Source: Trichodesmium erythraeum IMS101
GTDB lineage: Bacteria > Cyanobacteriota > Cyanobacteriia > Cyanobacteriales > Microcoleaceae
DNA: 32,000 nucleotides
Assembly: GCF_000014265.1 (NCBI RefSeq)
Contig: NC_008312.1
Location: 2,880,001-2,912,000, forward strand
Direction of reading: 5' to 3'
Shown in pieces: positions 6,552 to 32,000 of the stretch. Numbering within the stretch: position 1 is the first letter of the stretch; each line of letters starts with the position of its first letter. The position numbers and the translations under genes were made by a program. The notes below the pieces were generated by a model. That model was not told the origin of the DNA and searched no databases. It worked only from the letters and a program-made list of their open reading frames with translations.

Positions 6552-6607
6552 GTCTCGGACTACCCAAAGAATAATAATTAATTAATAGTACAATAATACA
6601 TCTATTC

Positions 6608-7118: not shown

Positions 7119-7275
7119 ATGAGTTTGGTCAAAATCTTATATTAACTATTGGTAAACCCTAAGTATTTATGCCAAATTAATTATATATAATTGCTGGTAT
7201 TGAACAACTTACAAGTGTCAAAATTACATCGTGCTATGGGAATTTTGCCCTGGGATAAAGTTATATACAGCATAT
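7091..7275. repeat. Direct repeat, copy 1 (~180 bp)
   Basis: The sequence attgagttgg...agtaaatgagtttggtcaaaatcttatattaactattggtaaaccctaagtatttatgccaaattaattatatataattgctggtattgaacaacttacaagtgtcaaaattacatcgtgctatgggaattttgccctgggataaa recurs 356-358 nt downstream with about 90% identity. Confidence 0.85.
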
Positions 7276-7446
7276 TTTGGTCATATAAGGTATGGGGTAA
7301 ATAGTGAAAATCAGGTGGTGCGGGCATCTTGCCCGCATATGTATGCTTTATAATAAGGGAAAGTTCTGTAGTTTTTGAGGGGGAATTTACTACAATTATG
7401 AGGTTTTTTTTGGGTGAATTTAAAAGTTAGGGGGTAAGCGATCGCT

Positions 7447-7632
7447 ATTGAGTTGACTATCAAAAATCAACAGTAAATGAGTTTGGTCAAAATCTTATAT
7501 TAACTATTGGCAAACCCTAAGTATTTATGCCAAATTAATTACATATAATTGCTAGTATTGAACAATTTACAAGTGTCAAAATTACATCGTGTTATAAGAA
7601 TTTTGCCCTGGGATAAAATTACATATTTTTTG
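7447..7632. repeat. Direct repeat, copy 2 (~180 bp)
   Basis: See copy 1. The spacer at 7276-7446 holds the hairpin gcgggcatcttgcccgc (~7321-7337) and a HIP1 site (7438-7445). Confidence 0.85.
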
Positions 7633-8236
7633 AAGTAGCAAGAAAAGCGACACAACAAATTTCTAAAGGAATAGGGTGAACAATGGATTATGGTAAGTTA
7701 TGAAGTCTGCTAATTTTCCATCTTTTTGGAATGAGTATTATGGTCTTCCTTTATAAACTAGAAGTGATTATTGAGGATATTCTCACAAGAGGTATTTATC
7801 ATAAGCTCATTAATTAATGGCAGTCCTTGACGCGATCACACTCCATACTTAATAATTTTTTTTCATTTTAATAAGCACCTAAGCAGAGCGAGCCGGATAT
7901 TTCAAATATACACGAAAATTTCTTGAAAAGCAACCACCCTGTGTTTCTTATATATCAAAACTTTTAACAAATGGCCAATGCAAACGCGATCGCACCCTTT
8001 TTACCCCCAATTTTCACCCTAAATAGCTCATTTCAACTTTTTTGGCAAAAATTAGTTTAAATTTTAAATATATTTAATGATATTTCATAAGCCTAACTAA
8101 TATAAAGATTTTTATTTGATTCACTAAACCCTAAAAACCTTGCAGCAATTAGTTTTCAGTCAAACTAATAGTTAAATGCTGACCGTTAATATATAAAATA
8201 AAGCTATCTCAAATATTTAATCTAAAATCTAAAAAA

Positions 8237-17003: not shown

Positions 17004-18995
17004 TTATAAGATAGACAGGTTGTAAGGAGTTCCACTACCTTGATCGAATACGCCAACCACATAGGTATCGGGAAACAAGAAGGTGTTAATCTCTTCAGGA
17101 GCATTGCCGGAGTTAGTAGAACTATCAAGGGATACTTTGTCGCTATCGTATAGTTCTAGGTTAGCGTTGCTCCTGAGACCGTCAAGTTTGATGCTGACGA
17201 AACTAGGCTCCGGAACAACAAAGTTGTAATAGTCGTTTTGATCAACTTTGCCTCCATTCTTGAAGCCAATATCACTGCTTTGGGTGAGAGGATCAACAAC
17301 TGTACCAAGAGGGATCCCTGGTGCCTTGTCATCTATATTTCCAGTCAGGGAGTCTCTCTTCTCAGAACCAGCGCTACGCTTAGAGCTTGGCAAGTCCCCA
17401 ACTCTTTTCAGCATCACTTTGGCTGTATCTGTACCGCCTTTGCCGTCGCTGATAGTATACTCAAAACTCCCCTTGCTGAACTTCTTATGCTTTCCACTAG
17501 GGGTAAAAGTTATTTCACCGCTTTTAGTTAACTCTACTTCGCCCTTGGTTGCATTACTGACTTTAATAATAGTCAACTTGTCGCCATCTTTATCTTGATC
17601 ATTTTTCAGTAACTTTTTTGCTTGGATAGCGTGAAAGAGCTTGGGTCTGACAAAAAACACCTTGTCGTCTTTAGCGATGGGGTCAGAATTATCTCTGACT
17701 TGAACTGTAACAGTCGCGCTATCACGGCCTTTATTACCGTCGTCGATGGTATATTCAAAACTGGCCTTGCCCGTAAAGTCTTTATCGGGGGTAAAAGTTA
17801 CCTTACCATTTTTACCCAGGATCACTTTGCCATTTGAAGCTTTACCTACCTTGCTAATACTTAACTTATCCCCGTCTTTATCCGTATCGTTTGCCAATAG
17901 CTCTTTTGGTTTAATAACCAATTTGCTTCCTGCATTAGTGGCGAGGTTGTCATTGCTTGCGATGGGCTTGGTGTTAACAATAGGAGTAACATTAACTTTG
18001 GTTTCCCCATAACCCAATACTTCCAGGGAAAGACGGTCTTTTTGGCTAGCATCGAGATCTGTAATACCCAGTTTAACTTCAAAAGTCCGACTTTGCCCAG
18101 GGCGGACATTTTCGTAAGTCGTAGGCTTAATACTTTTAATGTAACCAAACTCATCGCTTTGGGGTACTATCGTTAAGTCACTAAAGACTTCCTCCAAGCC
18201 CTCTGTTACTACCTTAACTAAGTTAGAACTGTCCCGCGATAACCTTTCTACCGTACCAAACCCCAATTTATCTACGAGTTTTTTGTAGTTTCTGACTTGG
18301 TTGCCGGTGACTGCAAAAATGGGAACAATGCCGGCTTCTTGTAAAGCATCTCTTACTTGATCGATACTGGGATAGTCTTCCCCAGTACCGGCTGGCTTAC
18401 CATCAAGAACTGTATCCCCATTATTGGGAGTTTTGATACCTGCTTTTTTGCCGTCTCCTGCTTTGTGGTAGTTAGCATCTGTAGAAAGAACGACAACGCG
18501 CCGAGATTTCTTACGGAAGCCTATCTCTTTTTCTCTGAGAGCTAACTGCATCAATGCCTCAAGCTGTGCCTCAGGACCGTCATTACCGTTACCAATTTTC
18601 AAGTCATCCATCGCTTTCTGAAAATCAGTGCGAGATTTAGTGATCGCTGACTCCATTCTATACACAAAATCTTTAGGGCCGCCAAAGGGATCTTTGGGTT
18701 TATCTATATATGATGCTAGACCGAATTGACTGTTTGGTTGGATGTCTCGAACTGAGGAAACTAGCTTGGGAACTAAATCCTGTAATACTGGCAGGTCATC
18801 CCCATAAGAACCAGAAAGATCGCTAAGAAAAACTAGGTCTAGAGGTAATTTTGTGGAACTTTTTTTAGTAACTTTGGCAGTGATATCAAAGGTCACATTG
18901 TCTCCAGGTACAAGAGTTACATCTACTACATCTGGATTTAAGCCTCCTTTGCGATCAACTATATTTGTGATACTGCTTTTAGTTTTCTTCGCCAT
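17004..18995 (-). CDS. vWA (MIDAS) domain protein with two cadherin-like/VCBS-type repeats and one C-terminal PPC domain
   Basis: 663 aa. It has the MIDAS motif DLVFLSDLSGSYGDD plus VVVLSTDANYH. Two ~95-aa repeats carry P(I)A.(N/D)D...(L)L.ND.DKDGDKL(S/T)I.KV....G.V......G.(V/I)TFTP....F.G..SFEYTI.DG.G..D.A.V. The C-terminal PPC domain reads DYYNFVV...NANLELYD...DTYVVGVF...YNLSI. Confidence 0.85.
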   Translation of the reverse strand: MAKKTKSSITNIVDRKGGLNPDVVDVTLVPGDNVTFDITAKVTKKSSTKLPLDLVFLSDLSGSYGDDLPVLQDLVPKLVSSVRDIQPNSQFGLASYIDKPKDPFGGPKDFVYRMESAITKSRTDFQKAMDDLKIGNGNDGPEAQLEALMQLALREKEIGFRKKSRRVVVLSTDANYHKAGDGKKAGIKTPNNGDTVLDGKPAGTGEDYPSIDQVRDALQEAGIVPIFAVTGNQVRNYKKLVDKLGFGTVERLSRDSSNLVKVVTEGLEEVFSDLTIVPQSDEFGYIKSIKPTTYENVRPGQSRTFEVKLGITDLDASQKDRLSLEVLGYGETKVNVTPIVNTKPIASNDNLATNAGSKLVIKPKELLANDTDKDGDKLSISKVGKASNGKVILGKNGKVTFTPDKDFTGKASFEYTIDDGNKGRDSATVTVQVRDNSDPIAKDDKVFFVRPKLFHAIQAKKLLKNDQDKDGDKLTIIKVSNATKGEVELTKSGEITFTPSGKHKKFSKGSFEYTISDGKGGTDTAKVMLKRVGDLPSSKRSAGSEKRDSLTGNIDDKAPGIPLGTVVDPLTQSSDIGFKNGGKVDQNDYYNFVVPEPSFVSIKLDGLRSNANLELYDSDKVSLDSSTNSGNAPEEINTFLFPDTYVVGVFDQGSGTPYNLSIL

Positions 18996-19035
18996 TACTT
19001 TTATTTATAGTCATTCAAAATAATAATGAAACATT

Positions 19036-19069
19036 AAAAAAAGTTAGGGTGTGCAACCCACGCCCTAAC
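19036..19069 (-). terminator. Rho-independent terminator after the 1,156-aa PPC gene
   Basis: On the minus strand: stem gttagggcgtg, loop ggttg, stem cacaccctaac (19043-19069), directly followed by a T7 run (19036-19042). It lies 33 nt downstream of the stop at 19102. Confidence 0.7.
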
Positions 19070-19101
19070 TTTGCCGAGCGACCTACGCTCCGTACTAGTT
19101 A

Positions 19102-22100
19102 TCAGAGAGAAATGCTCAGGTCGTAAGGAGTTTGATTACCTAGACCGAATACACCCACCACATAGGTAGTATCGGCACTCAAGAAGCTATTAATCTCCTC
19201 AGAAGTATTGCCGGAGTTATTAGAACTGCCAAGTTCTACTTCGCCAGTCTCATCGTATAGTTTCAGGTCAGCGTTATCGCTCAGGTCGTCAAGTTTGATA
19301 TCTACGAAACCAGCCTGGGTAATATCAAAGCTGTAATAGTCCTTGGTGTCAACTACGCCTCCCTCCGTGAAGCCGAGGTCACCGCCTTGGGTAAGAGGAT
19401 CAGCACCAACTGTAACCGTACCGAGAGCTATCCCTGGTGGCTCATTGTCTATGCTTTCACCAATTTCACTCGCACTCATATTCAGAGTGTAGTCAGTTTT
19501 AGCCGCACCCCTGGGAAACACTCGCACACAATAGTCGCCCGCATCCAAAGTAAGGTTGATTTTTTCGTCGTCACTACCACCATTAGCAGAAGTATTTAGC
19601 ACAGTGCTACCGTCGCCATCAATTAGCTGTAGGTTGGCGTTACCAGTAAGGCCTGTAAGGTTAATATCGACACTACTCTTAGCGCTCAAAGTAAACTTGC
19701 GGTAGTCGTTGACATCACGATAACTGTTTTCTTCACGACCGATGGAGTCCTCCTCTTCGTATGAGGTTAACACGCCGATGTCGGTGACGTTTTCTGGAAG
19801 TTTGCCTCCGTCCTCATCCACGCTACTGCCTGGCTCAGGAACCTTAATATTTAGGGTATAGTTACCACGAGCGTTACCTTTGGGTTCAACCCCTACATAG
19901 TAAGTACCTGGTTCAAGCTCTTCTTCAATTTTTTCGTTTTTCTTCTTCTTATTGCGGGAATCTTTGATCAAAGTATCAGAACTATCAAGCAATTCCAGAT
20001 CGATATCAGCGCTCAGTTTATTTAGGGAGATAGTCAGATTCTTGTCTTCGCTTAGTTCAAACTTGTAGTAGTCTACTTCGTCCCGACTGCTACCACTGCC
20101 GAAACCGACATTATCTATCTTACTGTAATCTTCAGTGAGGTTACCGATATCATTGTACAAAGAAGTCTCTAGCACAGGACCACCATCTGGATCGACGCTC
20201 GAACCACTTGCAAAAATGTCCAAATTATACTTAGTTTTAGCTTGGTTCTGGGGCTCTACATCCACATAATAATCGCCTGGATCCAGAGTGTCGCTAATAT
20301 TTTCGTTCCTTCTACCGCCTTTCCGAGACTCAAGCAATAAAGTGCCATCATCATCGTACAAGGCAATGTTGGCATTTCTTTTCAGCCCTGTGAGGTCAAT
20401 TTCTACATTCCTCTCGTCGCTTATGCTGAATAAGTGCCGATCAATAACGTTACGAATACCACCAGAGGTAAAGCCGATTTCCTCGCCCCTGATACTGTAA
20501 CCATCCTCCAAAGACAAAAGGTCACCAACTGTAAACTCTTGTCTCGGTTCTGGGATCGGTTCAGCATTCACCGAAAAACGATAGTTGCTGCGACTGTTTC
20601 CCTTTGGCAATATCTGGACATGATAAGTTCCTGCCTCCAATATCTCAGCAATGTTTTCTGATTTACGACCCTTGTTCCGAGAATTATTGAGAAAGGTTCC
20701 GTCGTCATCGTACAAGATCATATCTATGTTTTGACGCAGACGAGTCAGGTCGATGTCAACCAAGCTCTCTTCATCAATTGTAAAGCTGACCCAATCTTCT
20801 GTGTCACGACCGGAACGACCTTCAGTACGGCCCATTTCGCCGTTGAAGACCCTTGTCTCCCCAATAGGGATATTCCCGAAGTCTAAAGCTTCTTCAACAC
20901 TAGCATAGTCATCAACATAAGGAGCAGTCGCAGTTATACCCAAGCGATAGTTACTCTTGGCGCCACCATTTGGGAAAACTTTTATGTTATAGGTTCCTGG
21001 TTCCAGCCCTTCAAGTTCTATCTTTTCAGCTTTGCGGCCTGTATTTTTACCATCATCAACTAGCTCGCCACCCTCATCATAGATTTCCAGGTTAAGGTCT
21101 TGCCTTAGTCTATCTAGAGTCAGGTTGACATCGCTCTCTATCGGCACAGAAAAGTTGTACCAGTCTACCCTGTCTTTGTTAGCACCAAGTTTACCGGTTT
21201 TGCTGACGGGAGTAAGCTCCGTAACTGCCCCCAAGCTAATACCTGGTTCCTGGTCATCTTGTTCATTGGAAAGCACATCAGCGCTCAGACCCAGGCGATA
21301 GTCTGTCCTGGCAGCACCTTGGGGAGTTACGCGCACAAAATAATCACCGGGTTCTAATTCCTCGTTAATCTTTTCTCTTTTACGACCGCTATTGTTAGAC
21401 TGGTAGAGAATAGTGCTGCCATCCCCATCTAAAACCTCAACATTAGCATTTCCCTTTAGCTGGTCTAGGGTAAGGAAAAAGTCACTCTTTTCATTGATAC
21501 CAAACTTATAGTAATCTTCTTGGTCCCGGTTTTTACCCCGACCGAAGCCTATTCTGTCAATTTCGGTTACTTCTTCGAGTCCGATATTACCTAGTTCTTT
21601 AGCGGTATCAGTTGTGTCCTTTTCATCTGTCAGGGCATCAGCACTTACCCCTAAGCGGTATTTTGTGCGATCATCTCCTTCAGGATAAACACGGATGAAA
21701 TAATCACCTGATTCTAAATTTTCGGTAATGTTTTCCCGCTTCCGGTTCTCTTCAGTTGACTGGAAAAGTACTGTGCTACCATCCTCATCTAGAATTTCAA
21801 CGTTAGCATTGCGCTTGAGTTGGTCTAGAGTGATGTCAACCTCACTATCCTTGCTGAGAGTAAACTTATAGAAATCTTGCAAGTCACGGACACCACCTTC
21901 ATTAAAACCGATTTCGTCGGTATTGCGGTAGTTCTTCCGGCTGTTAAGATCGCCAAGATTAATGGCACCGTCCGTTTTTGCTGTGGGGTCTTCAAGACGC
22001 TCAATATCTCTGGGTGCTAGTCTAATTTTCGCGAACAAGCTAGCTATGTCTACTTCTTGTTCCATCACCCGAAAGCGGTTTACTAGGGTGTCACCACCAT

Positions 22101-22572
22101 CTTGGCTAAAGCCTGTTAGCTCTAAGGTGTATGTTTGTCCATCAAATTTGAAGGTTTCCGTGGGTAAGACTTTGGGAAAATAGACGAAATCAGACCAGTC
22201 ATCTATCTCGTCAGAGGTATCCTCCGTAGTGTCTAAGTCCAGATTGAAAGTAAAAGTTATGGGAGAATCTAATAATTCAAAAGGATCTAATAATTCAATC
22301 TTCAGCGGTACTGACTCTACCGCTGTATCCGAAAAAATTGAACCGTTAAAGAAGGTTAACTTTCCGACTTCAAACTGCTGGTCAGTTTTAATGCCCCCGC
22401 TAATGTCTTCCGCATTAAAGAGTAAGCTGTTTGGTTTCAGGTCTTCCTCTACCGACTCTCCCCAACGAAACGTATTCGGAGGATCTGTAGGATAAATTTT
22501 AGGATTCGGGTTTGGCCCTGGCTCGGCCTCTCCCCAGGTGCCACTAAATTCAACTTGAAAAGTCTCCGGCAT
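19102..22572 (-). CDS. Large acidic repeat protein: an N-terminal ~190-aa domain of unknown function followed by 8 PPC domains
   Basis: 1,156 aa with an ATG start. Eight units fit the PPC pattern D(Y/F/W)Y.F.(L/I/V)....V...L..L..NA(D/N)(L/V).(L/I).D.(D/S)G.......N.....E.I...L..G.Y...V.P.....Y.L. Anchor motifs are DFYKFTL, DYYKFGI, DWYNFSV, DWVSFTI, DRHLFSI, DYYKFEL, DYRKFTL and DYYSFDI. The N-terminus MPETFQVEFSGTWGE has no signal peptide. Confidence 0.85.
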   Translation of the reverse strand: MPETFQVEFSGTWGEAEPGPNPNPKIYPTDPPNTFRWGESVEEDLKPNSLLFNAEDISGGIKTDQQFEVGKLTFFNGSIFSDTAVESVPLKIELLDPFELLDSPITFTFNLDLDTTEDTSDEIDDWSDFVYFPKVLPTETFKFDGQTYTLELTGFSQDGGDTLVNRFRVMEQEVDIASLFAKIRLAPRDIERLEDPTAKTDGAINLGDLNSRKNYRNTDEIGFNEGGVRDLQDFYKFTLSKDSEVDITLDQLKRNANVEILDEDGSTVLFQSTEENRKRENITENLESGDYFIRVYPEGDDRTKYRLGVSADALTDEKDTTDTAKELGNIGLEEVTEIDRIGFGRGKNRDQEDYYKFGINEKSDFFLTLDQLKGNANVEVLDGDGSTILYQSNNSGRKREKINEELEPGDYFVRVTPQGAARTDYRLGLSADVLSNEQDDQEPGISLGAVTELTPVSKTGKLGANKDRVDWYNFSVPIESDVNLTLDRLRQDLNLEIYDEGGELVDDGKNTGRKAEKIELEGLEPGTYNIKVFPNGGAKSNYRLGITATAPYVDDYASVEEALDFGNIPIGETRVFNGEMGRTEGRSGRDTEDWVSFTIDEESLVDIDLTRLRQNIDMILYDDDGTFLNNSRNKGRKSENIAEILEAGTYHVQILPKGNSRSNYRFSVNAEPIPEPRQEFTVGDLLSLEDGYSIRGEEIGFTSGGIRNVIDRHLFSISDERNVEIDLTGLKRNANIALYDDDGTLLLESRKGGRRNENISDTLDPGDYYVDVEPQNQAKTKYNLDIFASGSSVDPDGGPVLETSLYNDIGNLTEDYSKIDNVGFGSGSSRDEVDYYKFELSEDKNLTISLNKLSADIDLELLDSSDTLIKDSRNKKKKNEKIEEELEPGTYYVGVEPKGNARGNYTLNIKVPEPGSSVDEDGGKLPENVTDIGVLTSYEEEDSIGREENSYRDVNDYRKFTLSAKSSVDINLTGLTGNANLQLIDGDGSTVLNTSANGGSDDEKINLTLDAGDYCVRVFPRGAAKTDYTLNMSASEIGESIDNEPPGIALGTVTVGADPLTQGGDLGFTEGGVVDTKDYYSFDITQAGFVDIKLDDLSDNADLKLYDETGEVELGSSNNSGNTSEEINSFLSADTTYVVGVFGLGNQTPYDLSISL

Positions 22573-22619
22573 TTTTTTCTTCCTTTGTTTTGCTTACAAA
22601 TTCGAGTTTGACTTACTTC

Positions 22620-22676
22620 GTAGTAATCGCTTTAGGAATTTAAAGCTACTTTCCTTAGAGCTAAAGCGCTTACTAC
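22620..22676 (-). promoter_or_regulatory. Intergenic 16-bp-stem hairpin between two PPC genes, with no U-tract
   Basis: The arms are gtagtaatcgctttag (22620-22635) and ctaaagcgcttactac (22661-22676), with one mismatch and a 25-nt loop. It sits between the stop at 22686 and the next start at 22572. Confidence 0.4.
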
Positions 22677-22685
22677 AAAATGAGT

Positions 22686-25277
22686 TTAGAAAAAATTAAT
22701 TGTATAGTCACTTTGGGCATCACCGACAGCCTCAACTTGCAGGTAATAATCCCCCGCTTCTAAAGTGGCATTGATCCTTTCGGTATTCGTACCGGGATTA
22801 GAAGACTTAAAGATTTCGGTAAAGATTTCGGTTTCGCCGTCACTACCCAAGAGAGTTAAGTCAGCATTTTGGGTCAGGCCGGACAAAATTATCCGGATGT
22901 CATCGTTTGCGTCGAGAGTAAATTTATAGTAGTCATTGACGTCATCTACTCCGTCTTCCATAAAACCTATTTTACCACTTTGAGTAAGCAGATCACTTCC
23001 CAAATCTGTAGCATCCTCCGGGGTGCCATCTGGGTCTCCCGTAATGGGATCTACTTCCGTTTCATCACCATCATCTCCCATGTCATCATCATCCCCGTCA
23101 TCCATGTCATCAGGAGGATCAGGAAGCGGGTCGGCGTTCATTTTCAGGAAATAGCTAGTTTTAGCATTGCCCACCGGGAAGACTTGCACTGTGTAGTCCC
23201 CAGCATCCAAAGTGTCACTCAAAATTTCTGGAGCATTCTCAGGGTTAAAGCCACTAAGGACCATATCACCTTCGCTATCCAACACCATCACATTAGCATC
23301 CCGCGTCATTTCGTCTAGGGTGAGCATGAAGTTGCTGTTGTTATCTAAGGTTAAGTTGTAGAAGTCGTTGAGGTTCCGAGAACCATTCTGGAAATCCCCA
23401 ATTCTTCCTTTCTTTTTGTACTCGTTATTGTTCAGATCAAGTAAAGAACCGACCTCAAAAGTTTCATCTCCCTCGGCGACTACTTCAGTGTCTATACCCA
23501 GACGGTAGGTAGTCTCAGCATTGCCCATTGGCATCACTCGCAAAGTGTAATCCCCTGGCTCTAAGACTTGATCAATTATTTCTGGATTATTTCTCTTTTC
23601 CTTGGAGCTGTCCACCAGCATGGAGCCCTTATAAAGCTCTAGGTCAACATTTCGCTTGATTTGGTCTAGAGTGGCATTAAACTCAGTTAACTCGTTGATA
23701 GTAAAAGTATATTCGTCCTGTGAGTTGCGTACCCCGCCGCCTTCTCCACCTATTTTGTCGTTATTGCTATATTCTGTGGGAGACTCCAGAGTTCCCAAAG
23801 GAAAGGTATCTGTTGGTGAGATGGGTTCATCCGCGCTCAGACTCAGGCGATAGTTGGTATTACTACTACCCCTAGCGACTACCTTTACATAATAGGTACC
23901 GGCATCTAGGTTTTCGTTAATAGTTTCCCGTTGCTTACCTTTATTTTTTGATTTGTAGAGCCGTGTAGTGCCATCGGCATCATAAATTTCGGCATCTGCC
24001 GCATTTACCCGCAGTTCATCTAAGGTTAAATCGACATTTTTCTCAGCGCTGAGGGTGAACTTAAACCAGTCCGCTTGGTCTCGGAATCGATCGTCTGTCA
24101 ATAGCCCCACATTATTACCCGTCTCATTAGTGGGTGTAGGTACCAACTCCCCCAAGTCCTTCGCCATTTCTGGAGCGGGGAAATCATCTACATTGATCCT
24201 GGCGTCCAATTCCAGTCGGTAGTCGGTCTTAGCCGCACCTCTAGGGCGTACCTCTAGGGCATAGTGTCCTTCAGGTAAAAATTCGCTGATGGTATCTGGT
24301 CTTCTGCCTTTGCGGGTAGACTTATTCAACCGGGAACCTAGTTCTTCTGGTTCATCAGGATCATATTCGTATAAATAGATATCAGCGTTCCGCTGTAGTT
24401 GATCTAGTTCTGCATAAAAGGAAGCTTCTTGACTCAACTCAAAAGTGTAATAATCCTTTGTGTTGCGCTGCCGACCGCGACCAAAGCCGATATCTTCAAT
24501 AGCAAAGTGTGGTTCTTCTGAAGCTAGAAGGTCCCCAACATCAGTGCCCGGAAGCTTTTCCGGTGGCAATATTTCGTCGGCGCTCAACCCCAAGCGGTAG
24601 GAAGTTCTAGCCCTACCCTGAGGGAAGACCCGCACCAGATAATCCCCTTTTTCCAAGATAGCGTTAATCGTTTCTTCCTGGCGTCCCTTATTTCGAGATT
24701 GCAGCAACAAGGTCTTCCCTTTATCGTCCCAAATTTGGACGTTGGCATTCTTTTTTAGCTGGTCTAGAGTGAGGCTGACATCACTATCCTGATCTAAGGT
24801 AAAGTTGAAGTAATCGTTTTTGTCCCTTTGGCCTCCCTTGGCAAAACCAATTTCATCGGTAAACGTAACCTCTTCTTCACTATCCAGGACTCCTAGGGAG
24901 ACACCAGGAAGCTCATCGTCAGTTATTGGATCAGCATTAAGACTCAACCTATAATCTGTTTGTGCCATGCCTTTTGGTAAGACGCGGACAAAATATTCTC
25001 CTGCATCTAATTCCGCATCAATAACTTCTCGTTGTTTACCAGGTTTTGTCGACTTGAATAATACTGAGCCATCACTATCTAATATTTGGACATTAGCATT
25101 CTTATCTAACTTGTCTAGGGTTAGATTAAAGTCGCTTTCCTCGTCGAGCTTAAATTTGTAGAAGTCGTTGCGCTCCCGTTTACCATCTACTCTAAAACCG
25201 ATCTGATCGTTCGTTACAGTCGGTTCTAGTTCGATGACTCCCAGGTCTAACGCATCTGCTCTGGTGTCGTTAGCCAT
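22686..25277 (-). CDS. Acidic repeat protein made of 7 PPC domains plus a poly-acidic linker
   Basis: 863 aa with an ATG start (MANDTRADALDLG) and no signal peptide. PPC anchor motifs are DFYKFKL, DYFNFTL, DYYTFEL, DWFKFTL, DEYTFTI, DFYNLTL and DYYKFTL. The linker reads DPLPDPPDDMDDGDDDDMGDDGDETEVDPITGDPDGTPED. Confidence 0.85.
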   Translation of the reverse strand: MANDTRADALDLGVIELEPTVTNDQIGFRVDGKRERNDFYKFKLDEESDFNLTLDKLDKNANVQILDSDGSVLFKSTKPGKQREVIDAELDAGEYFVRVLPKGMAQTDYRLSLNADPITDDELPGVSLGVLDSEEEVTFTDEIGFAKGGQRDKNDYFNFTLDQDSDVSLTLDQLKKNANVQIWDDKGKTLLLQSRNKGRQEETINAILEKGDYLVRVFPQGRARTSYRLGLSADEILPPEKLPGTDVGDLLASEEPHFAIEDIGFGRGRQRNTKDYYTFELSQEASFYAELDQLQRNADIYLYEYDPDEPEELGSRLNKSTRKGRRPDTISEFLPEGHYALEVRPRGAAKTDYRLELDARINVDDFPAPEMAKDLGELVPTPTNETGNNVGLLTDDRFRDQADWFKFTLSAEKNVDLTLDELRVNAADAEIYDADGTTRLYKSKNKGKQRETINENLDAGTYYVKVVARGSSNTNYRLSLSADEPISPTDTFPLGTLESPTEYSNNDKIGGEGGGVRNSQDEYTFTINELTEFNATLDQIKRNVDLELYKGSMLVDSSKEKRNNPEIIDQVLEPGDYTLRVMPMGNAETTYRLGIDTEVVAEGDETFEVGSLLDLNNNEYKKKGRIGDFQNGSRNLNDFYNLTLDNNSNFMLTLDEMTRDANVMVLDSEGDMVLSGFNPENAPEILSDTLDAGDYTVQVFPVGNAKTSYFLKMNADPLPDPPDDMDDGDDDDMGDDGDETEVDPITGDPDGTPEDATDLGSDLLTQSGKIGFMEDGVDDVNDYYKFTLDANDDIRIILSGLTQNADLTLLGSDGETEIFTEIFKSSNPGTNTERINATLEAGDYYLQVEAVGDAQSDYTINFF

Positions 25278-25930
25278 AATTATTTTTTTGCTATATAAAA
25301 CTGATACAAAACGTCACAACGTCACATAAGGTGACAATCTAATTTTTACTTCCTGCCTCCATTTAGACCATCGGTGGTTACTTATCCACAGATATTGATA
25401 GGCCTTGCCGGCCTGCATTTCTTAATTATTTGAGTCACTATCGTATTTTAAAATCATCCCAGTGCTGCTCTTACGAGACAGCAAAGGATTCTCTAAAATC
25501 GCTGTTAGGGTCTTTCTAATTCATAGCAACCGTCTTTAGAGATTTACTCTCTTCAGTTATAAAAAAGCTGACCCACACTGACACTGCCAGCCCCGCAGCC
25601 AAAAAGGTAAGGTTTGTTTGTAACCTACTCGTTTTTGTTGTTTATACCAAGCTTAAGTCATGGTAACTTTGGCATTCATCCCGACACTACCTTATCAGGA
25701 GAGCGCAGGCTTTTTGACAACATTTAGATAAACCATAGTTTATTAATAATTATCCCCAACTTATGGCCAAATGCATTCAGATTAGAAGATATATCAAAAA
25801 ACTAAACTAAGTTGAACTGAAATATTTTTCAGTGATACTATTATACCACTACTATCTGAAAAAGCAACATTTTTTCTCAAAATTTTTTTTGATGACATAA
25901 TGTCCCAAAATCTCCATCTAGAAAAACATA

Positions 25931-28900
25931 TTAAGTAGCAGACATACTCAAACTGTAATTAGTACCCAAACCATTATAACTCTCGTAAAACACTCCGACA
26001 AAATAGTTCCCAGAATTTAACAACCGAGAAATAGAACCCATCTCACCAGAGTTAATTTTCCAAACATAGGAACTACCCTGATAATGCCCATTAGCATCGT
26101 AACTAAAAGTGTCCCCAGAGGAGTTATAGAGATACAAGGAAGCCTCGTCACTCAAACCAGATAGCTCAATATTAACAGTCCGTTTTTCACTAAGATTAAA
26201 CTTATAGTAGTCATTCTCGTCAATATTACTTACCCAGTCATTAAAGGTTTGAACTTCTGCTAGATTTTCCACTGGCTTTGAGGTATCGAATGTATTCCCC
26301 GCAGCATCTGGATGTGCTACTGCCGATAGTTGTAAATTATAACCAGTACTAGCATCGCCGATGCTTTCGACCTCAACAATATAAGTCCCTGCTACCAGGT
26401 TGCGAGTAATATTTTCCGAAGCATTCAAGAAGTTTGTAGAATCATCTAACCAGTAGTATTCGTTATTGCGTAAGGTTAGATCCGCATTGGCACTCAAACC
26501 ATTGAGACTGAGGCTGACAGTACTATCCTCCGCGAGGGTAAATTGGTAGAAATCTTCCTTGTCACTGTCGATATTCTGGGAGATGCCGACAAAATCAGTA
26601 AAGGTCTGGGCCTCACCCAAAGCACCAATATTCTTAGTTTGAGCTTCCGTATTGCCCACTATATTAGGTGCCGAGTAGGTCAGGGGAGTGGCCGAAAAAT
26701 CTAGGTTGTAGTTAGTGTGACCACTTGACTGCCATACTAAAGCGTAATAAGTACCCGATGGTAGTTTTTCCGTAATTAATTCGTTATTGGTGTCATCATT
26801 AGTAGAACTAACTATCTCGTTTTCTTGGCTATCGTACAAGTAGAGGTCGGCGTCGCTTGCTAAACCTGTCAGATTAATGGTTACTTCGCTGTTTTGGGGG
26901 ATATCAAACTTGTAGTAGTCATTACGATCTATTCTTCCTACCCAGTCACTAAAGGCTTGAGTTGCGCTGACTGCACCGATATTCCGCGCTACATCAAAAT
27001 CATTTCCGGCATTATCAGAAATAGGAGTTGCAGTAGCGACGAAATTGTATTCAGTTCCGTTGCCCCAGAAGTTGCTTATCTCAACCAAGTAATTACCTGG
27101 GGTTAGATTTTTAGCGATCGCCGTCTCAGTATTCTCGTCATTAGGAGCTGAAGCAATTTCCTCCATGGCGCTGTTATAAAGATTGAAATTGATAGCATCT
27201 GTCAAACCAGTTAAGTTCAAACTAACTGCACTATTCTCACCTACAGAAAACTTATAATAGTCTTCTTCATCTATTCCTGGGGATACCCAGTTAGTAGCAT
27301 TAATAGTAGTCAGCGCTCCCAAATCTAGAGGCGAGTCAGCACCACCAGCATTATCCACCCGGACTGTGGGAGACAGTTGCAAACTGTAGTTAGTACCAAA
27401 GTTACCCCTATCATTCCAAACTTGGACGTAGTAAGTTCCGGGATTTAAATCAGCAACAATTACATCATCAGCATTCTCAGTATTTTGGGAATAGAGCAGA
27501 GGACTTTCCTCAATATCATACAGTCCAATATTACCATTGCCAGTCATTCCTCCCAGGTTAATGTTGACAGTGCTAACAGCATCTATGACAAACTGATAGT
27601 AATCCTTTTCATCAACATTCCCGATCCAGTCGTTAAAGGTTTGAGGCCCTGCTAAAGTGCCAATTAGTCGGGCTGTTCCAACAGTATCTCCGGCACCATC
27701 TGGGTGGGCTGTTGCGGACAATTGCAAATTATAACCGGTATTCCCATTCTCTATACTCTTGACTCCAGCGATATAAGTTCCAGCCTGTAAGTTACGGATA
27801 ATCACTTCGTCAACATTGGTAAGCTGACTAGATTCAGTAATCTGGGAATATTCGCTATCAAGCAGTACCAGGTCTGCATCTGCTGTCATACTCCCGAGAT
27901 TAAGGTTGACAGTGCTAGTCTCTCCTAGGACAAACTGGTAGAAGTCATTCTTGTCACGATCAACATATTGATTGCCGACAAAATCTGTGAAACTCTGGGT
28001 CGCACCCAAAGCACCAATATTCTTAGTTTGAGCTTCGGTGTTGCCGACGATATTATCTGGCGAGTAGGTCAGGGGAGTGGCCGAGAGTTCAAGGTTATAA
28101 TAGGTGTTGTCCCCACCATAATAAGGAGAACGTCCCTCAACTTTAACATAATAGGTATTACCACTTGCCAAATTATAGACAATAGATTCATCAGCGTTAC
28201 TATCGTTGTCGGAACTCCCTATTAGTTTCTCCTTGCTATCGTACAAGTATAGGCCGGTATTCGCGGTTAAACCTGCAAGCTTGAGGTTAATAGAGCTATT
28301 GGCGGCAACGCTGAATTTGTAGTAATCATCATATTGGAGGTCGCCAACCCAGTCCCTGATAGTTTGAGCGGCGCTGACCATGCCTAAATCCCTTGCCGTT
28401 TCAAAATCATCACCCGCAGAGTTGGGAAGAGTGGTTGCCGATGCCGTCAAATTGTAGTTGACGCTAGTTGCTTCCCGGCTATATGATTTATAGCGCAAGA
28501 TCCTGACATAATATATACCCGGGTTCAAGTTAGTGATAATAGCTTCATCCGTATTGCTGTCATTTATGGAACTTGTCAGTACTTCTCCCTCACTGTCATA
28601 AAGATAAAGTTGACCATTGTCATCCATTCCTGTTAGATTGAGATTGACGTTACTATCCTCAGTCAACGTGAATTTATAGTAATCGTTGGGATCGGCACTA
28701 CCTACCCAATTACTAAGCGTCTTAGGAGTAGATATATCACCCATATCCCCTGCTGTTTCTAGGGTGTCTCCTCCAGAGTCAGGAATAGTGGTTGCCGATG
28801 CCGTTAAATTATAGTTAACGCTAGTTGCTTCCCGGCTATATGATTTATAGCGCCAGACCCTGACATAATATGTACCCGGGTTCAAGTTAGTGATAATAGC

Positions 28901-31900
28901 TTCATCCGTATTGCTGTCATTTATGGAACTTGTCAGTACTTCTCCCTCACTGTCGTAAAGATAAAGTTGACCATTATCATCCATCCCTGTTAGATTGAGA
29001 CTAACATCGCTATCTTGAGTCAAGGTGAATTTATAGTAGTCATTGGGGTCGACATTCCCTACCCAATTACTAAGCGTCTTAGGAGTAGATATATCACCTA
29101 TATCCCCTGCTGTTTCTCGGGTGTTTCCTCCAGAGTCAGGAATAGTGGTTGCCGATGCCGTTAAATTGTAGTTAACGCTAGTTGCTTCCCGGCTATATAA
29201 TTTATAGCGCCAGACCCCAACATAATATGTACCCGGGTTCAAGTTAGTGATAATAGCTTCATCCGTATTGCTGTCATTTCTGGAACTTGTCAGTACTTCT
29301 CCCTCACTGTCGTAAAGATAAAGTTGGCCGTTGCTATTCATTCCTGTTAGATTGAGGTCAACCTCACTATCCTCAGCCAGACTAAACTTGTAGTAATCAC
29401 TGACATCGAAGCTACCTACCCATTCAGTCTGGTTGAAAGTTGTTAAAGCTCCAATATCTTTTGCTGTCTCCAAGTCGTTGCCGACCAAATCTTCTGCCCG
29501 GGAAGTAGCTGATATTTGGAAATTGTAGGGGGTACCTACGACTCCACTGTAACGCTCTACTTCAACGAAATAGTTACTGGGAGTTAAGTTAATAGCTATC
29601 CCATCATCGGCATTACCCTCTTGTGAAGAAGAGGACAGACTTTTTTCCTTATTATCGAACAGTTTCAGATTAGCATTGCCACTCATTCCCGTCAAACTCA
29701 TATCAACTGTACTATTTTCACTTACAGCGAACATATAGTAGTCAGTGCCATCAATATCTCCCACCCAATCATTAACTATTGTTTCTCCTAAGGTCCCTAA
29801 ATCTAGTGCTTGGTCAGGATTTTCTCCAGCACCATTATCTGGCAGTGGAGTTCCCACCACCTGTAAATTGTAGTTAGTTTTAGCGTTGTTAATGCTTTGA
29901 ACCTCAATAAAATAAGTTCCTGGACTCAAATTTTTGACAATACTTTCATCAGCTTTTTGCAGCGTCTCCGACCTGGCGATACTACTACTGCTTTCGCTGT
30001 TATAAAGATATAGATCGGCATTCTTGTTCAACCCCGTCAAATCAATTTGAACCTGGCTACCGCTACCCTCTACCTGAAACTTATAGAAATCATTCAGGTC
30101 ATCTACAAACCCGTGGGGGTTACCCACATATTCAGTTTTTGCTATGGGAGTAGCACTGACCGCACCAATATTCAGGGCAGTATTGCGGTTCCAGCCCGTA
30201 ATTTGCGGCACTGGATATTCTAGTGGCAATGCTGACATTTCCAAGTCATAGTTGGTGTTGCCTCCGTCATCCTTCCAAACTAAACCATAATAAGTACCAG
30301 GTAATAATTTTATATCAATTGCTTCCTCTTTATTCTCCGACTCCTCAGACTTTTGTAGCAAATCTCCATCGCTGTCGTACAAGTAGAGGTTGGCATTAGC
30401 GCTCAAACCCTTGAGATTTAAATTGAGACGACTTCTGTCATCAAGTTCTATCTTGTAGTAGTCGTGGGTATCTTCCGAGACGCCATAGAAATCACCCACC
30501 CAGTCTGAGAACTTCTGAGTTTTATTACCAAGGACACCAACTTTTCGCCCTTTATTTAGTTTGTTGCCCGCATTGTCCTGGGGTACAGGACTCAGGGAGA
30601 CTTTTTCTTTGCTAACATTGTTAGTCTCGTTGACTTCCCTCAATACATCTTGGTCGTCAGCGATCGCCCCAATAAAATATTTCTTAACTCCACTGACGCT
30701 GGCCACTGGTAAAGTCAACTGCTTGTTGATGGTAGTACTCTTCTTACCCCCCAAAGATGTGACCATCTTAGAACCGAGTAACTCATCACTGGTAGTAATT
30801 TCATTATCCTCTGACACATAAAATCCCACCCGGAAATCATCAAGCTTACCACCAGCATTATTCAAAGTGACTTTGGCATTAAACTTTTGTCCGGGGTTAA
30901 CAGTTTTTTCCTGCACATCAAAACCGCTAACAATCAAATCGCTGGAAAGATCAACACCCACTCTCTGACTGCCGGTATTATTCAGTTCGTTATTTTCGAC
31001 AATAGCGTCCTGAACATCCACCATCATACCCAGATAGTAGTCTCCAGAGCCCTGCCAGAAATTGTCCCCGGACTCTGGCAGAGTCAATTGCTTCGCCAAC
31101 TTCTTGGTATTCTTATCACCGGAAAGAGACTTAACCTTGGCAGTCCCCAAGAGGAAATCTCCCTTGTCTATACCCTCATCTTTGGACAAATAAAATCCAA
31201 CCTCAAAAGCATCTGCCTTAGTATTACCGATGTTATTAACCTGGTAATTAACCTTAAGTCTCTCCCCGGCTTTTAATCCATCTTGCACATCCAGGGCTTC
31301 AAACTTCAAACTAGACAAATCTACAGTTTTCTGTGTTACCCCCAGAGTTAATTCGTAATCAGTTTTAGCTCCAGAAACCGGGAAAATTGCCGCATAATAA
31401 GTCCCTGCTTCTAACTTTTTCTTAATATTTTCAGCTTTGAGACCTTTGGCAGTAGATTCATCAAGGGTGTTCTTATTATCCAGCAATAACAAATTTGCAT
31501 CTCCATCCAGGCCATCCAAAGACAAATTAACATCACTGGTTTCAGTCAGTTTAAAACTGTAGAAATCTGCTTGGTCTATAAGGCTACCTTCTTTGAACCC
31601 TACCCTATTGTTTTGTGTCACCTGGTCTTGCAAATTAAGAGTCCCTAATTGCTGGGCATTCTGACGATTATTAAAATCATCCTTCTGAAGATTAGTTGTT
31701 ACTTCTAAATTGTAATTAGTCTTAACCTTTCCCCCATTTGGTTTCACACCAATATAATAATTTCCTGGCTGCAAAATCTCGTTGATAATTTCATTTCTCT
31801 TACCTTTATTGTTAGAAACTTCTATTTCTCCCCCATCATTTCCTACCAAGAATAAATTAGCATCACCGGTTAAACCATCTAGAGTAATATTAACCCCCCT

Positions 31901-32000
31901 TTGTTCTGCTAAACTGAAATTATAGAAATCCCCAACATCCCGGATATTTTGGGAAGATTCAAAACCAATTTCGTCCTTTTTAACAATCTTTTGATTTCCC
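25931..32000 (-). CDS. Giant PPC-repeat protein (more than 2,020 aa; the 5' end lies outside the window) with about 16 PPC domains and two CARDB-like domains
   Basis: The reading frame stays open from 31849 to the window edge: ...GNQKIVKKDEIGFESSQNIRDVGDFYNFSLAEQRGVNITLDGLTGDANLFLVGNDGGE.... The TTG at 31849 in the ORF track is therefore internal. PPC anchors (DFYSFKL, DYYKIEL, DFYKFQV, DYYMFAV, DYYKFSL, DYYKFTL x2, DYYKFSV x2, DFYQFVL, DYYQFVI, DYYKFDI, DFYQFTL, DYYKFNL) are spaced at roughly 110-120 aa. The stop is at 25931. Confidence 0.85.
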   Translation of the reverse strand, partial: GNQKIVKKDEIGFESSQNIRDVGDFYNFSLAEQRGVNITLDGLTGDANLFLVGNDGGEIEVSNNKGKRNEIINEILQPGNYYIGVKPNGGKVKTNYNLEVTTNLQKDDFNNRQNAQQLGTLNLQDQVTQNNRVGFKEGSLIDQADFYSFKLTETSDVNLSLDGLDGDANLLLLDNKNTLDESTAKGLKAENIKKKLEAGTYYAAIFPVSGAKTDYELTLGVTQKTVDLSSLKFEALDVQDGLKAGERLKVNYQVNNIGNTKADAFEVGFYLSKDEGIDKGDFLLGTAKVKSLSGDKNTKKLAKQLTLPESGDNFWQGSGDYYLGMMVDVQDAIVENNELNNTGSQRVGVDLSSDLIVSGFDVQEKTVNPGQKFNAKVTLNNAGGKLDDFRVGFYVSEDNEITTSDELLGSKMVTSLGGKKSTTINKQLTLPVASVSGVKKYFIGAIADDQDVLREVNETNNVSKEKVSLSPVPQDNAGNKLNKGRKVGVLGNKTQKFSDWVGDFYGVSEDTHDYYKIELDDRSRLNLNLKGLSANANLYLYDSDGDLLQKSEESENKEEAIDIKLLPGTYYGLVWKDDGGNTNYDLEMSALPLEYPVPQITGWNRNTALNIGAVSATPIAKTEYVGNPHGFVDDLNDFYKFQVEGSGSQVQIDLTGLNKNADLYLYNSESSSSIARSETLQKADESIVKNLSPGTYFIEVQSINNAKTNYNLQVVGTPLPDNGAGENPDQALDLGTLGETIVNDWVGDIDGTDYYMFAVSENSTVDMSLTGMSGNANLKLFDNKEKSLSSSSQEGNADDGIAINLTPSNYFVEVERYSGVVGTPYNFQISATSRAEDLVGNDLETAKDIGALTTFNQTEWVGSFDVSDYYKFSLAEDSEVDLNLTGMNSNGQLYLYDSEGEVLTSSRNDSNTDEAIITNLNPGTYYVGVWRYKLYSREATSVNYNLTASATTIPDSGGNTRETAGDIGDISTPKTLSNWVGNVDPNDYYKFTLTQDSDVSLNLTGMDDNGQLYLYDSEGEVLTSSINDSNTDEAIITNLNPGTYYVRVWRYKSYSREATSVNYNLTASATTIPDSGGDTLETAGDMGDISTPKTLSNWVGSADPNDYYKFTLTEDSNVNLNLTGMDDNGQLYLYDSEGEVLTSSINDSNTDEAIITNLNPGIYYVRILRYKSYSREATSVNYNLTASATTLPNSAGDDFETARDLGMVSAAQTIRDWVGDLQYDDYYKFSVAANSSINLKLAGLTANTGLYLYDSKEKLIGSSDNDSNADESIVYNLASGNTYYVKVEGRSPYYGGDNTYYNLELSATPLTYSPDNIVGNTEAQTKNIGALGATQSFTDFVGNQYVDRDKNDFYQFVLGETSTVNLNLGSMTADADLVLLDSEYSQITESSQLTNVDEVIIRNLQAGTYIAGVKSIENGNTGYNLQLSATAHPDGAGDTVGTARLIGTLAGPQTFNDWIGNVDEKDYYQFVIDAVSTVNINLGGMTGNGNIGLYDIEESPLLYSQNTENADDVIVADLNPGTYYVQVWNDRGNFGTNYSLQLSPTVRVDNAGGADSPLDLGALTTINATNWVSPGIDEEDYYKFSVGENSAVSLNLTGLTDAINFNLYNSAMEEIASAPNDENTETAIAKNLTPGNYLVEISNFWGNGTEYNFVATATPISDNAGNDFDVARNIGAVSATQAFSDWVGRIDRNDYYKFDIPQNSEVTINLTGLASDADLYLYDSQENEIVSSTNDDTNNELITEKLPSGTYYALVWQSSGHTNYNLDFSATPLTYSAPNIVGNTEAQTKNIGALGEAQTFTDFVGISQNIDSDKEDFYQFTLAEDSTVSLSLNGLSANADLTLRNNEYYWLDDSTNFLNASENITRNLVAGTYIVEVESIGDASTGYNLQLSAVAHPDAAGNTFDTSKPVENLAEVQTFNDWVSNIDENDYYKFNLSEKRTVNIELSGLSDEASLYLYNSSGDTFSYDANGHYQGSSYVWKINSGEMGSISRLLNSGNYFVGVFYESYNGLGTNYSLSMSAT
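28431..29400 (-). repeat. About 2.7 near-identical tandem copies of a 357-bp (119-aa, one PPC domain) unit inside the giant gene
   Basis: The string gtggttgccgatgccgt... recurs at 28431, 28788 and 29145, exactly 357 nt apart. The protein copies are ...TSVNYNLTASATTIPDSGG(N/D)T(R/L)ETAGD(I/M)GDISTPKTLSNWVG..DPNDYYKFTLT(Q/E)DS.V.LNLTGMDDNGQLYLYDSEGEVLTSSINDSNTDEAIITNLNPG.YYVR..RYKSYSREA. Confidence 0.9.
30590..31324 (-). other. Pair of CARDB-like domains interrupting the PPC array of the giant protein
   Basis: LKFEALDVQDGLKAGERLKVNYQVNNIGNTKADAFEVGFYLSKDEGIDKGDFLLG...YYLGMMVDVQDAIVENNELNN and a second copy, FDVQEKTVNPGQKFNAKVTLNNAGGKLDDFRVGFYVSEDNEITTSDELLG...YFIGAIADDQDVLREVNETNN. These fit the CARDB pattern V.N.G...a..f.V.fYlS.D..i...D.lLg...YY....vD....v.E.nE.NN. 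Confidence 0.6.

Follow-up and report, generated by a model that had tools for sequence, protein, structure and literature searches.

What function might be served by a locus that encodes one pre-peptidase C-terminal (PPC) domain after another and no peptidase? The question is raised by a stretch of 32,000 nucleotides from Trichodesmium erythraeum IMS101 (NC_008312.1, positions 2,880,001 to 2,912,000; the whole of this stretch is called the window here), in which four co-oriented genes on the minus strand encode products of 663, 1156, 863, and 2632 aa. Our answer, held with somewhat more confidence than doubt, is that these genes specify a secreted, Ca2+-stiffened set of fibrillar adhesins or matrix proteins of the trichome surface, common to Trichodesmium, Okeania, Limnospira/Arthrospira, and Lyngbya.

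Domain composition of the four proteins

The gene layout had been described in a first-pass annotation made from the DNA letters alone, and our analysis of the open reading frames (ORFs) bore it out, including a fourth frame that stays open to the end of the window (Table 1). The three complete products are exact matches to ABG51146, ABG51147, and ABG51148; the IMS101 annotation calls the first “Integrin, beta chain-like” and the other two “peptidase-like”. The remaining 610 aa of gene 4 extend past the window. We obtained the full gene from a contig of T. erythraeum GBRTRLIN201 that is 100% identical across the shared 2022 aa. It encodes 2632 aa with 19 PPC domains, and the off-window part consists of an acidic, proline-rich, non-hydrophobic N-terminus of about 128 aa and four further PPC domains. 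That part had been named as a place where a protease or glycosidase might yet be found; a Pfam/NCBIfam-type domain scan detected neither there. Pfam and NCBIfam assigned no catalytic domain to any of the four proteins, full-length gene 4 included, so the reported absence of an enzyme domain holds. In none of them is PPC the C-terminal appendage of a secreted peptidase.

We counted PPC domains with a hidden Markov model (HMM) built from the cluster’s own repeats, alongside Pfam PF04151. The four proteins contain 1, 8, 7, and 15 copies within the window, 31 altogether, in agreement with the earlier figure of at least 30 and with its individual counts for genes 1 to 3, but not with its “about 16” for gene 4. 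Since full-length gene 4 holds 19, the cluster total is 35 (1/8/7/19). PF04151 scored 28–423 bits in all four proteins (cut-off 25.9), and Pfam likewise confirmed the other families in the original inventory (VWA, two cadherin-like repeats, two CARDB domains). Apart from three copies in gene 4, the repeats share 28–55% pairwise identity, which marks them as ancient and divergent.

A profile of the 31 in-window repeats matched the collagen-binding domains of the collagenases ColG and ColH (5iku, 1nqd, 3jqw; E 7e-8 to 7e-4). The profile was required: a single-sequence search of the PDB with gene 3 gave no match. An AlphaFold model of the first two PPC domains of gene 3 (aa 1–245) reached a predicted local distance difference test score (pLDDT) of 82, and its best PDB match by Foldseek was 5iku, the ColG s3a–s3b tandem (E 6e-13). 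The HMM check therefore assigned the repeats to the PPC family and the collagenase collagen-binding fold, and to no different one. The Asp of a “D-Y-Y-x-F” motif is invariant among the cluster’s PPC domains, and 31 of the 35 have D, N, or E three positions ahead of it; this D/N/E-x-x-D stretch corresponds to the aligned “DSRD” of ColG. Judged by profile and model, the modules fold like the collagenase collagen-binding domain; the D-x-x-D calcium motif persists in most of them, and Ca2+ binding is predicted. Clostridial ColG s3a/s3b, ColH s3, and the PPC appendages of proteases share this fold, the D-x-x-D-Y-Y-x-F motif, and a tandem arrangement with acidic linkers. Unlike those enzymes, which carry one or two copies, genes 2 to 4 have 7–19 copies and neither a catalytic domain nor a signal peptide.

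The N-terminal half of gene 1 aligns with the betaI domains of integrin beta-2 and beta-3 (E 1e-33 to 1e-27), with beta-2 (aligned as 5e6r_B) as the best PDB sequence match at E 3e-33. The metal ion-dependent adhesion site (MIDAS; DxSxS = DLSGS, plus E and D), already described as intact, is retained in the alignment to integrin beta-2, as is the DD of the adjacent site (ADMIDAS). The protein shares these features with integrin beta and with bacterial integrin-like adhesins such as CglD of Myxococcus, through which an integrin-like VWA adhesin has been linked to gliding (bioRxiv 10.1101/2023.10.19.562135). Unlike integrin beta, it has no known alpha partner, and Pfam and hydropathy analysis revealed no PSI domain, EGF stalk, transmembrane helix, or cytoplasmic NPxY tail. 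The literature makes the same remark about a lone “prokaryotic integrin beta”, which it attributes to horizontal transfer, and gene 1 is evidently that protein. Integrin-ligand motifs are nearly absent from the four proteins (RGD 0, LDV 1, KGD 2).

The domain of about 190 aa at the N-terminus of gene 2, initially listed as unknown, is a choice-of-anchor K domain: aa 8–179 cover the full length of NF038131 (E 4.6e-39, 134 bits, cut-off 30). The cyanobacterial choice-of-anchor K/THxN PEP-CTERM proteins (NF038131, NF038125) are thus its closest point of comparison. Choice-of-anchor K relatives in Calothrix, Nostoc, and metagenomes are proteins of about 245 aa with a Sec signal peptide and a PEP-CTERM anchor. 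In the alignment, gene 2 and its orthologs begin exactly where the mature N-terminus of these relatives begins; they have neither the signal peptide nor PEP-CTERM, and the anchor is replaced by eight PPC domains. Because the relatives are sorted by Sec and PEP-CTERM, and because gene 2 starts at their mature N-terminus, an extracellular destination is suggested for gene 2 as well.

When the choice-of-anchor K profile was compared with the PDB, it matched the peptide-binding domains of Vibrio cholerae FrhA (9y9w, E 2.6e-7) and Marinomonas primoryensis MpIBP (5k8g/6x5v, E 5e-6). Structure prediction, an approach put forward in the first-pass annotation, gave a fold that matches the same domains: FrhA/MpIBP structures ranked first in Foldseek (E 2e-9; pLDDT of the model 63). 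On the strength of profile and model, we regard the gene 2 domain as homologous to these two. The FrhA and MpIBP domains recognize C-terminal peptides on diatoms and host cells, promote biofilm formation, and have been reported solely from large type I adhesins of a few gammaproteobacteria (PMC10523503).

The MIDAS, the cadherin-like repeats, the CARDB domains, and the FrhA/MpIBP-type head make an adhesive, extracellular character of the cluster proteins likely. To this extent, the Ca2+-dependent surface or matrix adhesion system first envisaged for the locus stands; the colony or dust role attached to it does not, as described below. We propose that the PPC modules would act as extender (stalk) units, stiffened by Ca2+, and that the stalks would display ligand-binding heads, namely the betaI MIDAS of gene 1, the choice-of-anchor K domain of gene 2, and the CARDB domains of gene 4. 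Gene 3 would be a head-less rod, possibly a spacer or cross-linker. Fibrillar adhesins are defined by an adhesive domain together with a tandem stalk, and this combination was found in genes 1, 2, and 4, with gene 3 having the stalk only. The survey paper on fibrillar adhesins does not mention PPC as a stalk domain.

Conservation of genes, stalks, and heads

Full-length orthologs of gene 3 (43–94% identity, 98–100% coverage) were found in Okeania, Limnospira/Arthrospira, other Trichodesmium clades, and uncultured cyanobacteria. The same search also returned gene-2-like and Integrin_beta+PPC proteins, including one of Lyngbya sp. CCY1209. A survey of gene order, as the first-pass annotation had recommended, revealed syntenic clusters in Limnospira/Arthrospira, Okeania, Lyngbya, and uncultured relatives. 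The island of Limnospira fusiformis has at least seven co-oriented genes, which encode SBBP/Calx-beta/PPC proteins, then a PPC-only protein, then an Integrin_beta+8-PPC protein. One metagenomic relative has gene-4-like, gene-3-like, and gene-2-like genes side by side, and further genera have a gene-4-like and gene-3-like pair. The orthologs share leaderless N-termini and conserved C-terminal endings.

In Arthrospira platensis NIES-39, the orthologous island is NIES39_Q02140-Q02210, with Integrin_beta+PPC, PPC-only, and SBBP/Calx-beta/PPC proteins. Cluster genes of this strain have been listed as putative extracellular proteins with haemolysin-type Ca2+-binding, SBBP, Calx-beta, and PPC domains (PMC2853384). 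Unlike this island, the Trichodesmium cluster has, as far as seen, no SBBP/Calx-beta members, but it includes a 19-PPC giant and keeps choice-of-anchor K on a protein of its own. PPC domains were also tabulated in the 2010 Arthrospira genome paper, with 41 in A. platensis and 75 in the last column, taken here to be T. erythraeum because the columns run alphabetically (PMC2853384). The PPC enrichment of both genera is therefore already known, as is gene 1 in its guise of “prokaryotic integrin beta”. What is new is the identity of the choice-of-anchor K domain and its homology to FrhA/MpIBP, the swapping of heads on a conserved stalk, and the distinct terminal PPC.

The first-pass annotation had pictured a system particular to a colony-forming marine cyanobacterium. 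Non-colonial genera, Limnospira among them, have orthologous clusters with conserved gene order, which makes a colony-bundling or dust-capture role specific to Trichodesmium unlikely. More likely, the cluster has a role on filament surfaces in general, be it in adhesion, in gliding traction, or in the sheath or matrix; it might take the form of filament–substrate or filament–filament adhesion or of traction for gliding. A dust-transcriptome supplement contained no match to the cluster genes.

Individual PPC domains are orthologous by position between genera, with 43–80% identity on the diagonal versus 28–52% off it; the sole exception is an Okeania gene 3 ortholog with an extra domain. Position for position, the eight PPC domains of gene 2 correspond as orthologs to the eight in the Integrin_beta+PPC proteins of Limnospira and Lyngbya, where the same integrin-like head as that of gene 1 sits atop the 8-PPC stalk. 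Since this stalk is orthologous under different heads, it is an ancient unit onto which heads were swapped.

Genes 1 to 3 are under purifying selection. The ratio of nonsynonymous to synonymous substitution rates (dN/dS) of gene 3 was 0.18–0.24 against three other genera. Against another Trichodesmium clade, gene 3 gave 0.50, gene 2 gave 0.62, and the betaI head of gene 1 gave 0.18. We conclude from these ratios that the genes are functional and that their stalks evolve fast.

Several further features of these loci are worth recording. Synonymous divergence from the other Trichodesmium clade was uneven (dS 0.32 for the integrin head of gene 1, 0.09–0.11 for genes 2 and 3), a possible sign that part of the cluster has recombined or recently swept between clades. 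The PPC genes have a GC content of 0.42–0.45 and a third-position GC content (GC3) of 0.39–0.45; GC3 of the neighboring dnaE is 0.23–0.26, and intergenic GC is about 0.31–0.37. Codon usage of the cluster is thus atypical for the genome and could reflect acquisition from a higher-GC relative or strong codon selection. A PAS/GAF-GGDEF-EAL gene adjoins the orthologous cluster in Limnospira fusiformis (17214-20489 of the locus) and in Lyngbya sp. CCY1209 (5647-9501), and there is none in the Trichodesmium window. Such a neighbor fits surface behavior controlled by cyclic di-GMP but proves nothing. Two adjacent proteins of the Limnospira island (locus 2576-9311), one PPC+Calx-beta and the other SBBP+Calx-beta+PPC, have a near-identical leaderless N-terminal region of about 90 aa (MENTREILVAI.PEPSDYPNPLPPLGFSGDV...) and the same PPC subtype at the end. 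The system may possess in this region a second conserved terminal module.

PPC-dominated arrays had been thought unusual, and they are not. When 1.84 billion representatives were searched exhaustively with a profile, 20,293 matched at E ≤ 1e-3 and 1692 cluster representatives at E ≤ 1e-30; the tallies that follow are from the best 150 of those 1692. These proteins have 4–51 matched stretches each, and 35 are at least 80% PPC by length. A PPC domain begins within 45 residues of the initiator Met in 73, the protein ends in PPC in 43, and a hydrophobic N-terminus was present in just 5 of the 123 that start with Met. Their median Cys content is 0.3 per 1000 residues. On these sequence features, leaderless arrays made mostly or only of PPC are a widespread, uncharacterized class. 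Calothrix and its relatives have leaderless giants that open with 14–23 PPC domains directly after Met; one of these is annotated as YD-repeat-containing, and another ends in YD-repeat-like sequence. Several proteins with 21–25 PPC domains were seen in metagenome-assembled genomes of Magnetococcales.

Export, attachment, and competing readings

The lack of a Sec leader, noted from the start, is genuine. Hydropathy analysis showed neither a hydrophobic N-terminus nor a membrane helix in any of the four proteins (maximum Kyte-Doolittle 19-residue score 1.15), and the N-terminal 12-residue hydropathy maximum stays below 1.0 in cluster proteins versus 2.0–2.4 in signal-peptide-bearing homologues. 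An upstream in-frame stop leaves no space for a longer N-terminus. Orthologs in at least four genera start MANDT/MAYDT..., MADILQG..., or MSxK..., immediately before the first domain. Because these leaderless starts are kept across genera, Sec-independence is a real trait and not an annotation error. We also considered a double-glycine leader for gene 1 (..DRKGG, aa 15–19) and rejected it because it is not conserved (RG in Lyngbya) and sits in the region that aligns to the integrin hybrid/betaI domains.

Across the four proteins there is 1 Cys in 5314 residues. The description of the proteins as extremely acidic is correct for genes 2 to 4 (pI 4.2–4.4) but not for gene 1 (pI 6.9, net charge 0). 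The last 60 aa are 50–62% L/D/A/V/T/S/I/F, with just 2–5 residues of K/H/P/M/W/C. In all gene-2-type and integrin-type proteins compared, the terminal PPC has 1–8 K+R versus 7–16 in internal PPC domains of the same protein. This C-terminal composition, together with the acidity, the near-zero Cys content, and the missing leader, matches type I substrates. We suggest that export would occur without Sec or Tat. A type I system, of the kind composed of an ATP-binding cassette transporter, a membrane fusion protein, and TolC (ABC/MFP/TolC), would thread the unfolded, acidic, Cys-free chain C-terminus first, and the chain would fold upon contact with external Ca2+. The conserved terminal PPC domain, poor in K and R, would serve in export, attachment, or both. 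By analogy, type I export is plausible and is the likeliest route, if unproven.

The analogy is with the repeats-in-toxin (RTX) adhesins LapA, MpIBP, and FrhA. Like them, the cluster proteins are giant, acidic (gene 1 is neutral), Cys-poor, and leaderless. Both use runs of beta-sandwich extenders, Ca2+-binding in the known adhesins and predicted to be so here, to present ligand-binding domains; the gene 2 head is homologous to the peptide-binding domain of those adhesins, and a VWA-type head, as in gene 1, is known there too. Unlike them, the cluster uses PPC rather than BIg or cadherin extenders and divides its functions among four proteins. T. erythraeum has 35 predicted RTX proteins (PMC3034196), which indicates that the type I route is heavily used.

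Several observations count against a secreted adhesin set of this kind. The RTX nonapeptide (GG.G.D) and PF00353 are found in none of the four proteins, and RTX-like tandem nonapeptides in just 6 of the best 150 multi-PPC proteins. Neighboring ABC/MFP/TolC genes had been suggested as something to look for; neither these nor C39-peptidase genes are present in the window or beside any orthologous cluster examined, and the upstream neighbors of orthologous loci vary (kinase, amidase, FHA-ABC2 transporter, EVE, P-type ATPase, TPR, GGDEF/EAL). The proteins end in a folded beta-sandwich, not in the customary unstructured type I signal. Pfam/NCBIfam scans detected no retention module in the N-termini, although no dedicated retention-module model was used, and the 128-aa N-terminal extension of gene 4 is absent from its Lyngbya and Limnospira counterparts. 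The topology also departs from that of LapA-, MpIBP-, and FrhA-type adhesins: those are retained by the N-terminus and bind ligand through a C-terminal region (PMC10523503), whereas the cluster proteins have N-terminal heads. The model of the choice-of-anchor K domain is of moderate confidence only. Evidence of expression is on the favorable side but insecure: among single field colonies, 3 of 25 yielded a Trichodesmium “Integrin, beta chain” protein, and a PPC-only Trichodesmium protein was listed in bulk samples (PMC9723768 supplement). These finds are suggestive, but neither can be mapped to the cluster with certainty, the former not to gene 1. A literature search by the UniProt and RefSeq accessions of the cluster gave no match.

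The same absences invite the thought that the proteins do reach the outside, but not by classical type I secretion: either an as yet undescribed Sec-independent pathway uses the terminal PPC as a sorting or attachment domain, or vesicles or programmed cell lysis release the proteins, which then self-assemble on neighboring filaments. We consider this unlikely, though likelier than the other alternatives. Besides the missing RTX repeats and linked transporter genes, it draws on the terminal PPC, which is a conserved subtype of its own. The terminal domains of genes 1 and 2 are 49–67% identical to other terminal PPC domains across genera and at most 43% identical to other PPC domains; that of gene 1 is 52–66% identical to the terminal domains of gene-2-type and integrin-type proteins in other genera, and again at most 43% identical to any other PPC. 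A word-indexed search with the terminal PPC alone recovered only Trichodesmium fragments. Pfam, NCBIfam, and motif checks found no recognizable surface anchor (LPXTG, PEP-CTERM, membrane helix, SLH, or lipobox), and the terminal PPC is the sole anchor candidate. Every inspectable gene of the Limnospira island is leaderless and Cys-free, and all but one end in PPC. The prevalence among multi-PPC proteins of starts with PPC close to Met (73 of the best 150), with a hydrophobic N-terminus in only 5 of 123, points in the same direction. However, no candidate machinery co-occurs in the loci examined. Cyanobacterial type I systems are usually unlinked to their substrates, so the missing linkage gives no specific support for a new pathway.

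A bolder version would have filamentous cyanobacteria, and perhaps Magnetococcales, share an export and attachment route independent of both Sec and RTX, in which the terminal PPC docks and interchangeable heads (betaI, choice-of-anchor K, CARDB, SBBP/Calx-beta) ride on position-specific PPC stalks to form a modular surface matrix, which in Trichodesmium might engage the collagen-like sheath protein TrpA. We think this distinctly unlikely.

TrpA also figures in an account that we rate as improbable, in which the PPC arrays bind collagen and tie this collagen-like sheath protein into a metazoan-style matrix, while the integrin-like head serves as an additional receptor for the matrix. Trichodesmium does have TrpA as a collagen-like protein at its surface (Price et al. 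2013, 2014, summarised in PMC8441504). The PPC repeats are homologous to clostridial collagen-binding domains, and the betaI-like domain has an intact MIDAS. Against this, the profile alignment shows no Tyr in the repeat consensus at the columns aligned to the “YKY” of ColG s3b, which we take to be the collagen-contacting Tyr994 and Tyr996. Unlike ColG, the cluster repeats have thus not conserved these residues, and we treat collagen binding as unsupported. The PPC domains of most proteins are not known to bind collagen. Moreover, Limnospira, Okeania, and Lyngbya possess the cluster but are not known to have a TrpA-like partner.

That the proteins remain inside the cell, for instance to buffer Ca2+ or to serve as scaffolds in the cytoplasm or periplasm, is very improbable in our estimation. 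The absence of a signal peptide, a membrane anchor, or a recognizable secretion motif would fit such a role, but the accessory domains all come from extracellular or adhesion families, the choice-of-anchor K relatives are sorted by Sec and PEP-CTERM, and so low a Cys content is atypical of cytoplasmic proteins.

It is scarcely credible that the genes are decaying remnants of secreted proteases that have lost their catalytic domains, or cargo of the type IX secretion system (T9SS), and no distinct system at all: the “peptidase-like” annotation and above-cut-off scores to the T9SS sorting-domain models Por_Secre_tail/TIGR04183 speak for it, but the ORFs are intact, the PPC domains are orthologous by position, dN/dS is about 0.2 across genera, orthologs of the four genes have no protease domain, the T9SS-model matches fall on internal PPC domains (gene 2 aa 249–304 and 477–535) and not on the terminal one, the Sec leader that T9SS cargo needs is missing, and T9SS is not known from cyanobacteria. 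TIGR04183 scores 69–120 bits on PPC repeats of gene 2, gene 3, and the Okeania ortholog (cut-off 23), and the last is publicly named “T9SS type A sorting domain-containing protein”. This looks like systematic cross-matching and misannotation, and serves as a warning that PPC repeats exceed the thresholds of T9SS sorting-domain models.

The preferred reading, a set of surface adhesins or matrix proteins, bears on organisms of ecological and commercial weight. In Trichodesmium and Arthrospira/Limnospira, the molecular biology of the filament surface (gliding, aggregation, particle and partner binding) is poorly understood, and the cluster offers a concrete, conserved set of candidates: a MIDAS head, a relative of the peptide-blockable FrhA domain, and a distinct terminal module that could define how leaderless giants exit cyanobacterial cells. 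It also sets the “prokaryotic integrin beta” in context, as a head that can be exchanged for others within a cyanobacterial adhesin family conserved by vertical descent, and not as a lone oddity derived from eukaryotes.

Feature coordinates and the rest of the window

Table 1. Genes and domains of the PPC cluster (window coordinates; all on the minus strand).
Feature	Position	Strand	Description and basis
Gene 1	17004..18995	-	663 aa, ABG51146 / WP_011611519; betaI-like VWA head, two cadherin-like repeats, one C-terminal PPC
Gene 1, integrin betaI-like VWA (aa 49–272)	18180..18851	-	PF00362, E 5.2e-46; DLSGS MIDAS
Gene 1, two cadherin-like/Big_9/“tandem-95” repeats (aa ~340–537)	17385..17978	-	Cadherin_5, Big_9, NF012211, two stretches each; boundary of second repeat placed by eye
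Gene 1, C-terminal PPC, K/R-poor terminal subtype	17007..17300	-	Identity to terminal PPC domains of other genera; 5 K+R
Gene 2	19102..22572	-	1156 aa, ABG51147; choice-of-anchor K head, then eight PPC
Gene 2, choice-of-anchor K domain (aa 8–179)	22036..22551	-	NF038131, E 4.6e-39
Gene 2, eight-PPC stalk	19105..21942	-	Repeat HMM; last PPC (19105-19407) is of the terminal subtype
Gene 3	22686..25277	-	863 aa, ABG51148; seven PPC only, the first beginning 15 residues past the initiator Met
Gene 3, poly-Asp/Gly/Pro acidic linker ahead of last PPC	23001..23114	-	Translation; 24-bp tandem repeat at 23062-23112
Gene 4, C-terminal 2022 of 2632 aa	25931..32000	-	In window: two PPC, two CARDB, 13 PPC
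Gene 4, two CARDB domains inside the PPC array	30530..31318	-	PF07705, E 7.5e-15, two stretches; fall in a PPC gap
Gene 4, three near-identical PPC units	28417..29422	-	357-bp period, 90% matches

The acidic linker of gene 3 was correctly recognized as a poly-D/G stretch in the first-pass annotation, but its position was given there as about 23040-23130. The triplet of near-identical units in gene 4 is a recent internal duplication, and the copy number of its 357-bp unit may differ among strains. No ORF of at least 60 aa lies in the 1.4 kb upstream of gene 4, as judged from the identical GBRTRLIN201 contig. Within the window, Rfam gave zero matches, and promoter and terminator scans did no better than on shuffled sequence.

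The first 3.9 kb of the window (1-3902) are AT-rich (GC 0.31; 0.24 near 2–3 kb) and contain no ORF of at least 100 aa and no Rfam match, in agreement with the large non-coding fraction known for the T. erythraeum genome. An ORF of 165 aa follows (3903-4400); of a transposase-like protein it has just the HTH_32/HTH_23/HTH_33 part, and it probably represents a truncated insertion sequence element. The sole recognizable domain of a 530-aa ORF at 4846-6438 is a C-terminal HTH_3. On the plus strand, a 2684-aa ORF at 8237-16291 encodes the N-terminal part of DNA polymerase III alpha (PHP, pol3-alpha, and finger domains); it contains intein splicing and LAGLIDADG domains, and its end has sequence characteristic of the N-terminal half of the split DnaE intein of cyanobacteria. 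The first dnaE intein includes, at 11290-14328, 17.8 copies (96% matches) of a 171-bp unit, equal to 57 aa, which amounts to about 1000 residues of in-frame repeat. Repeat-bearing inteins have been described in Trichodesmium replication genes.

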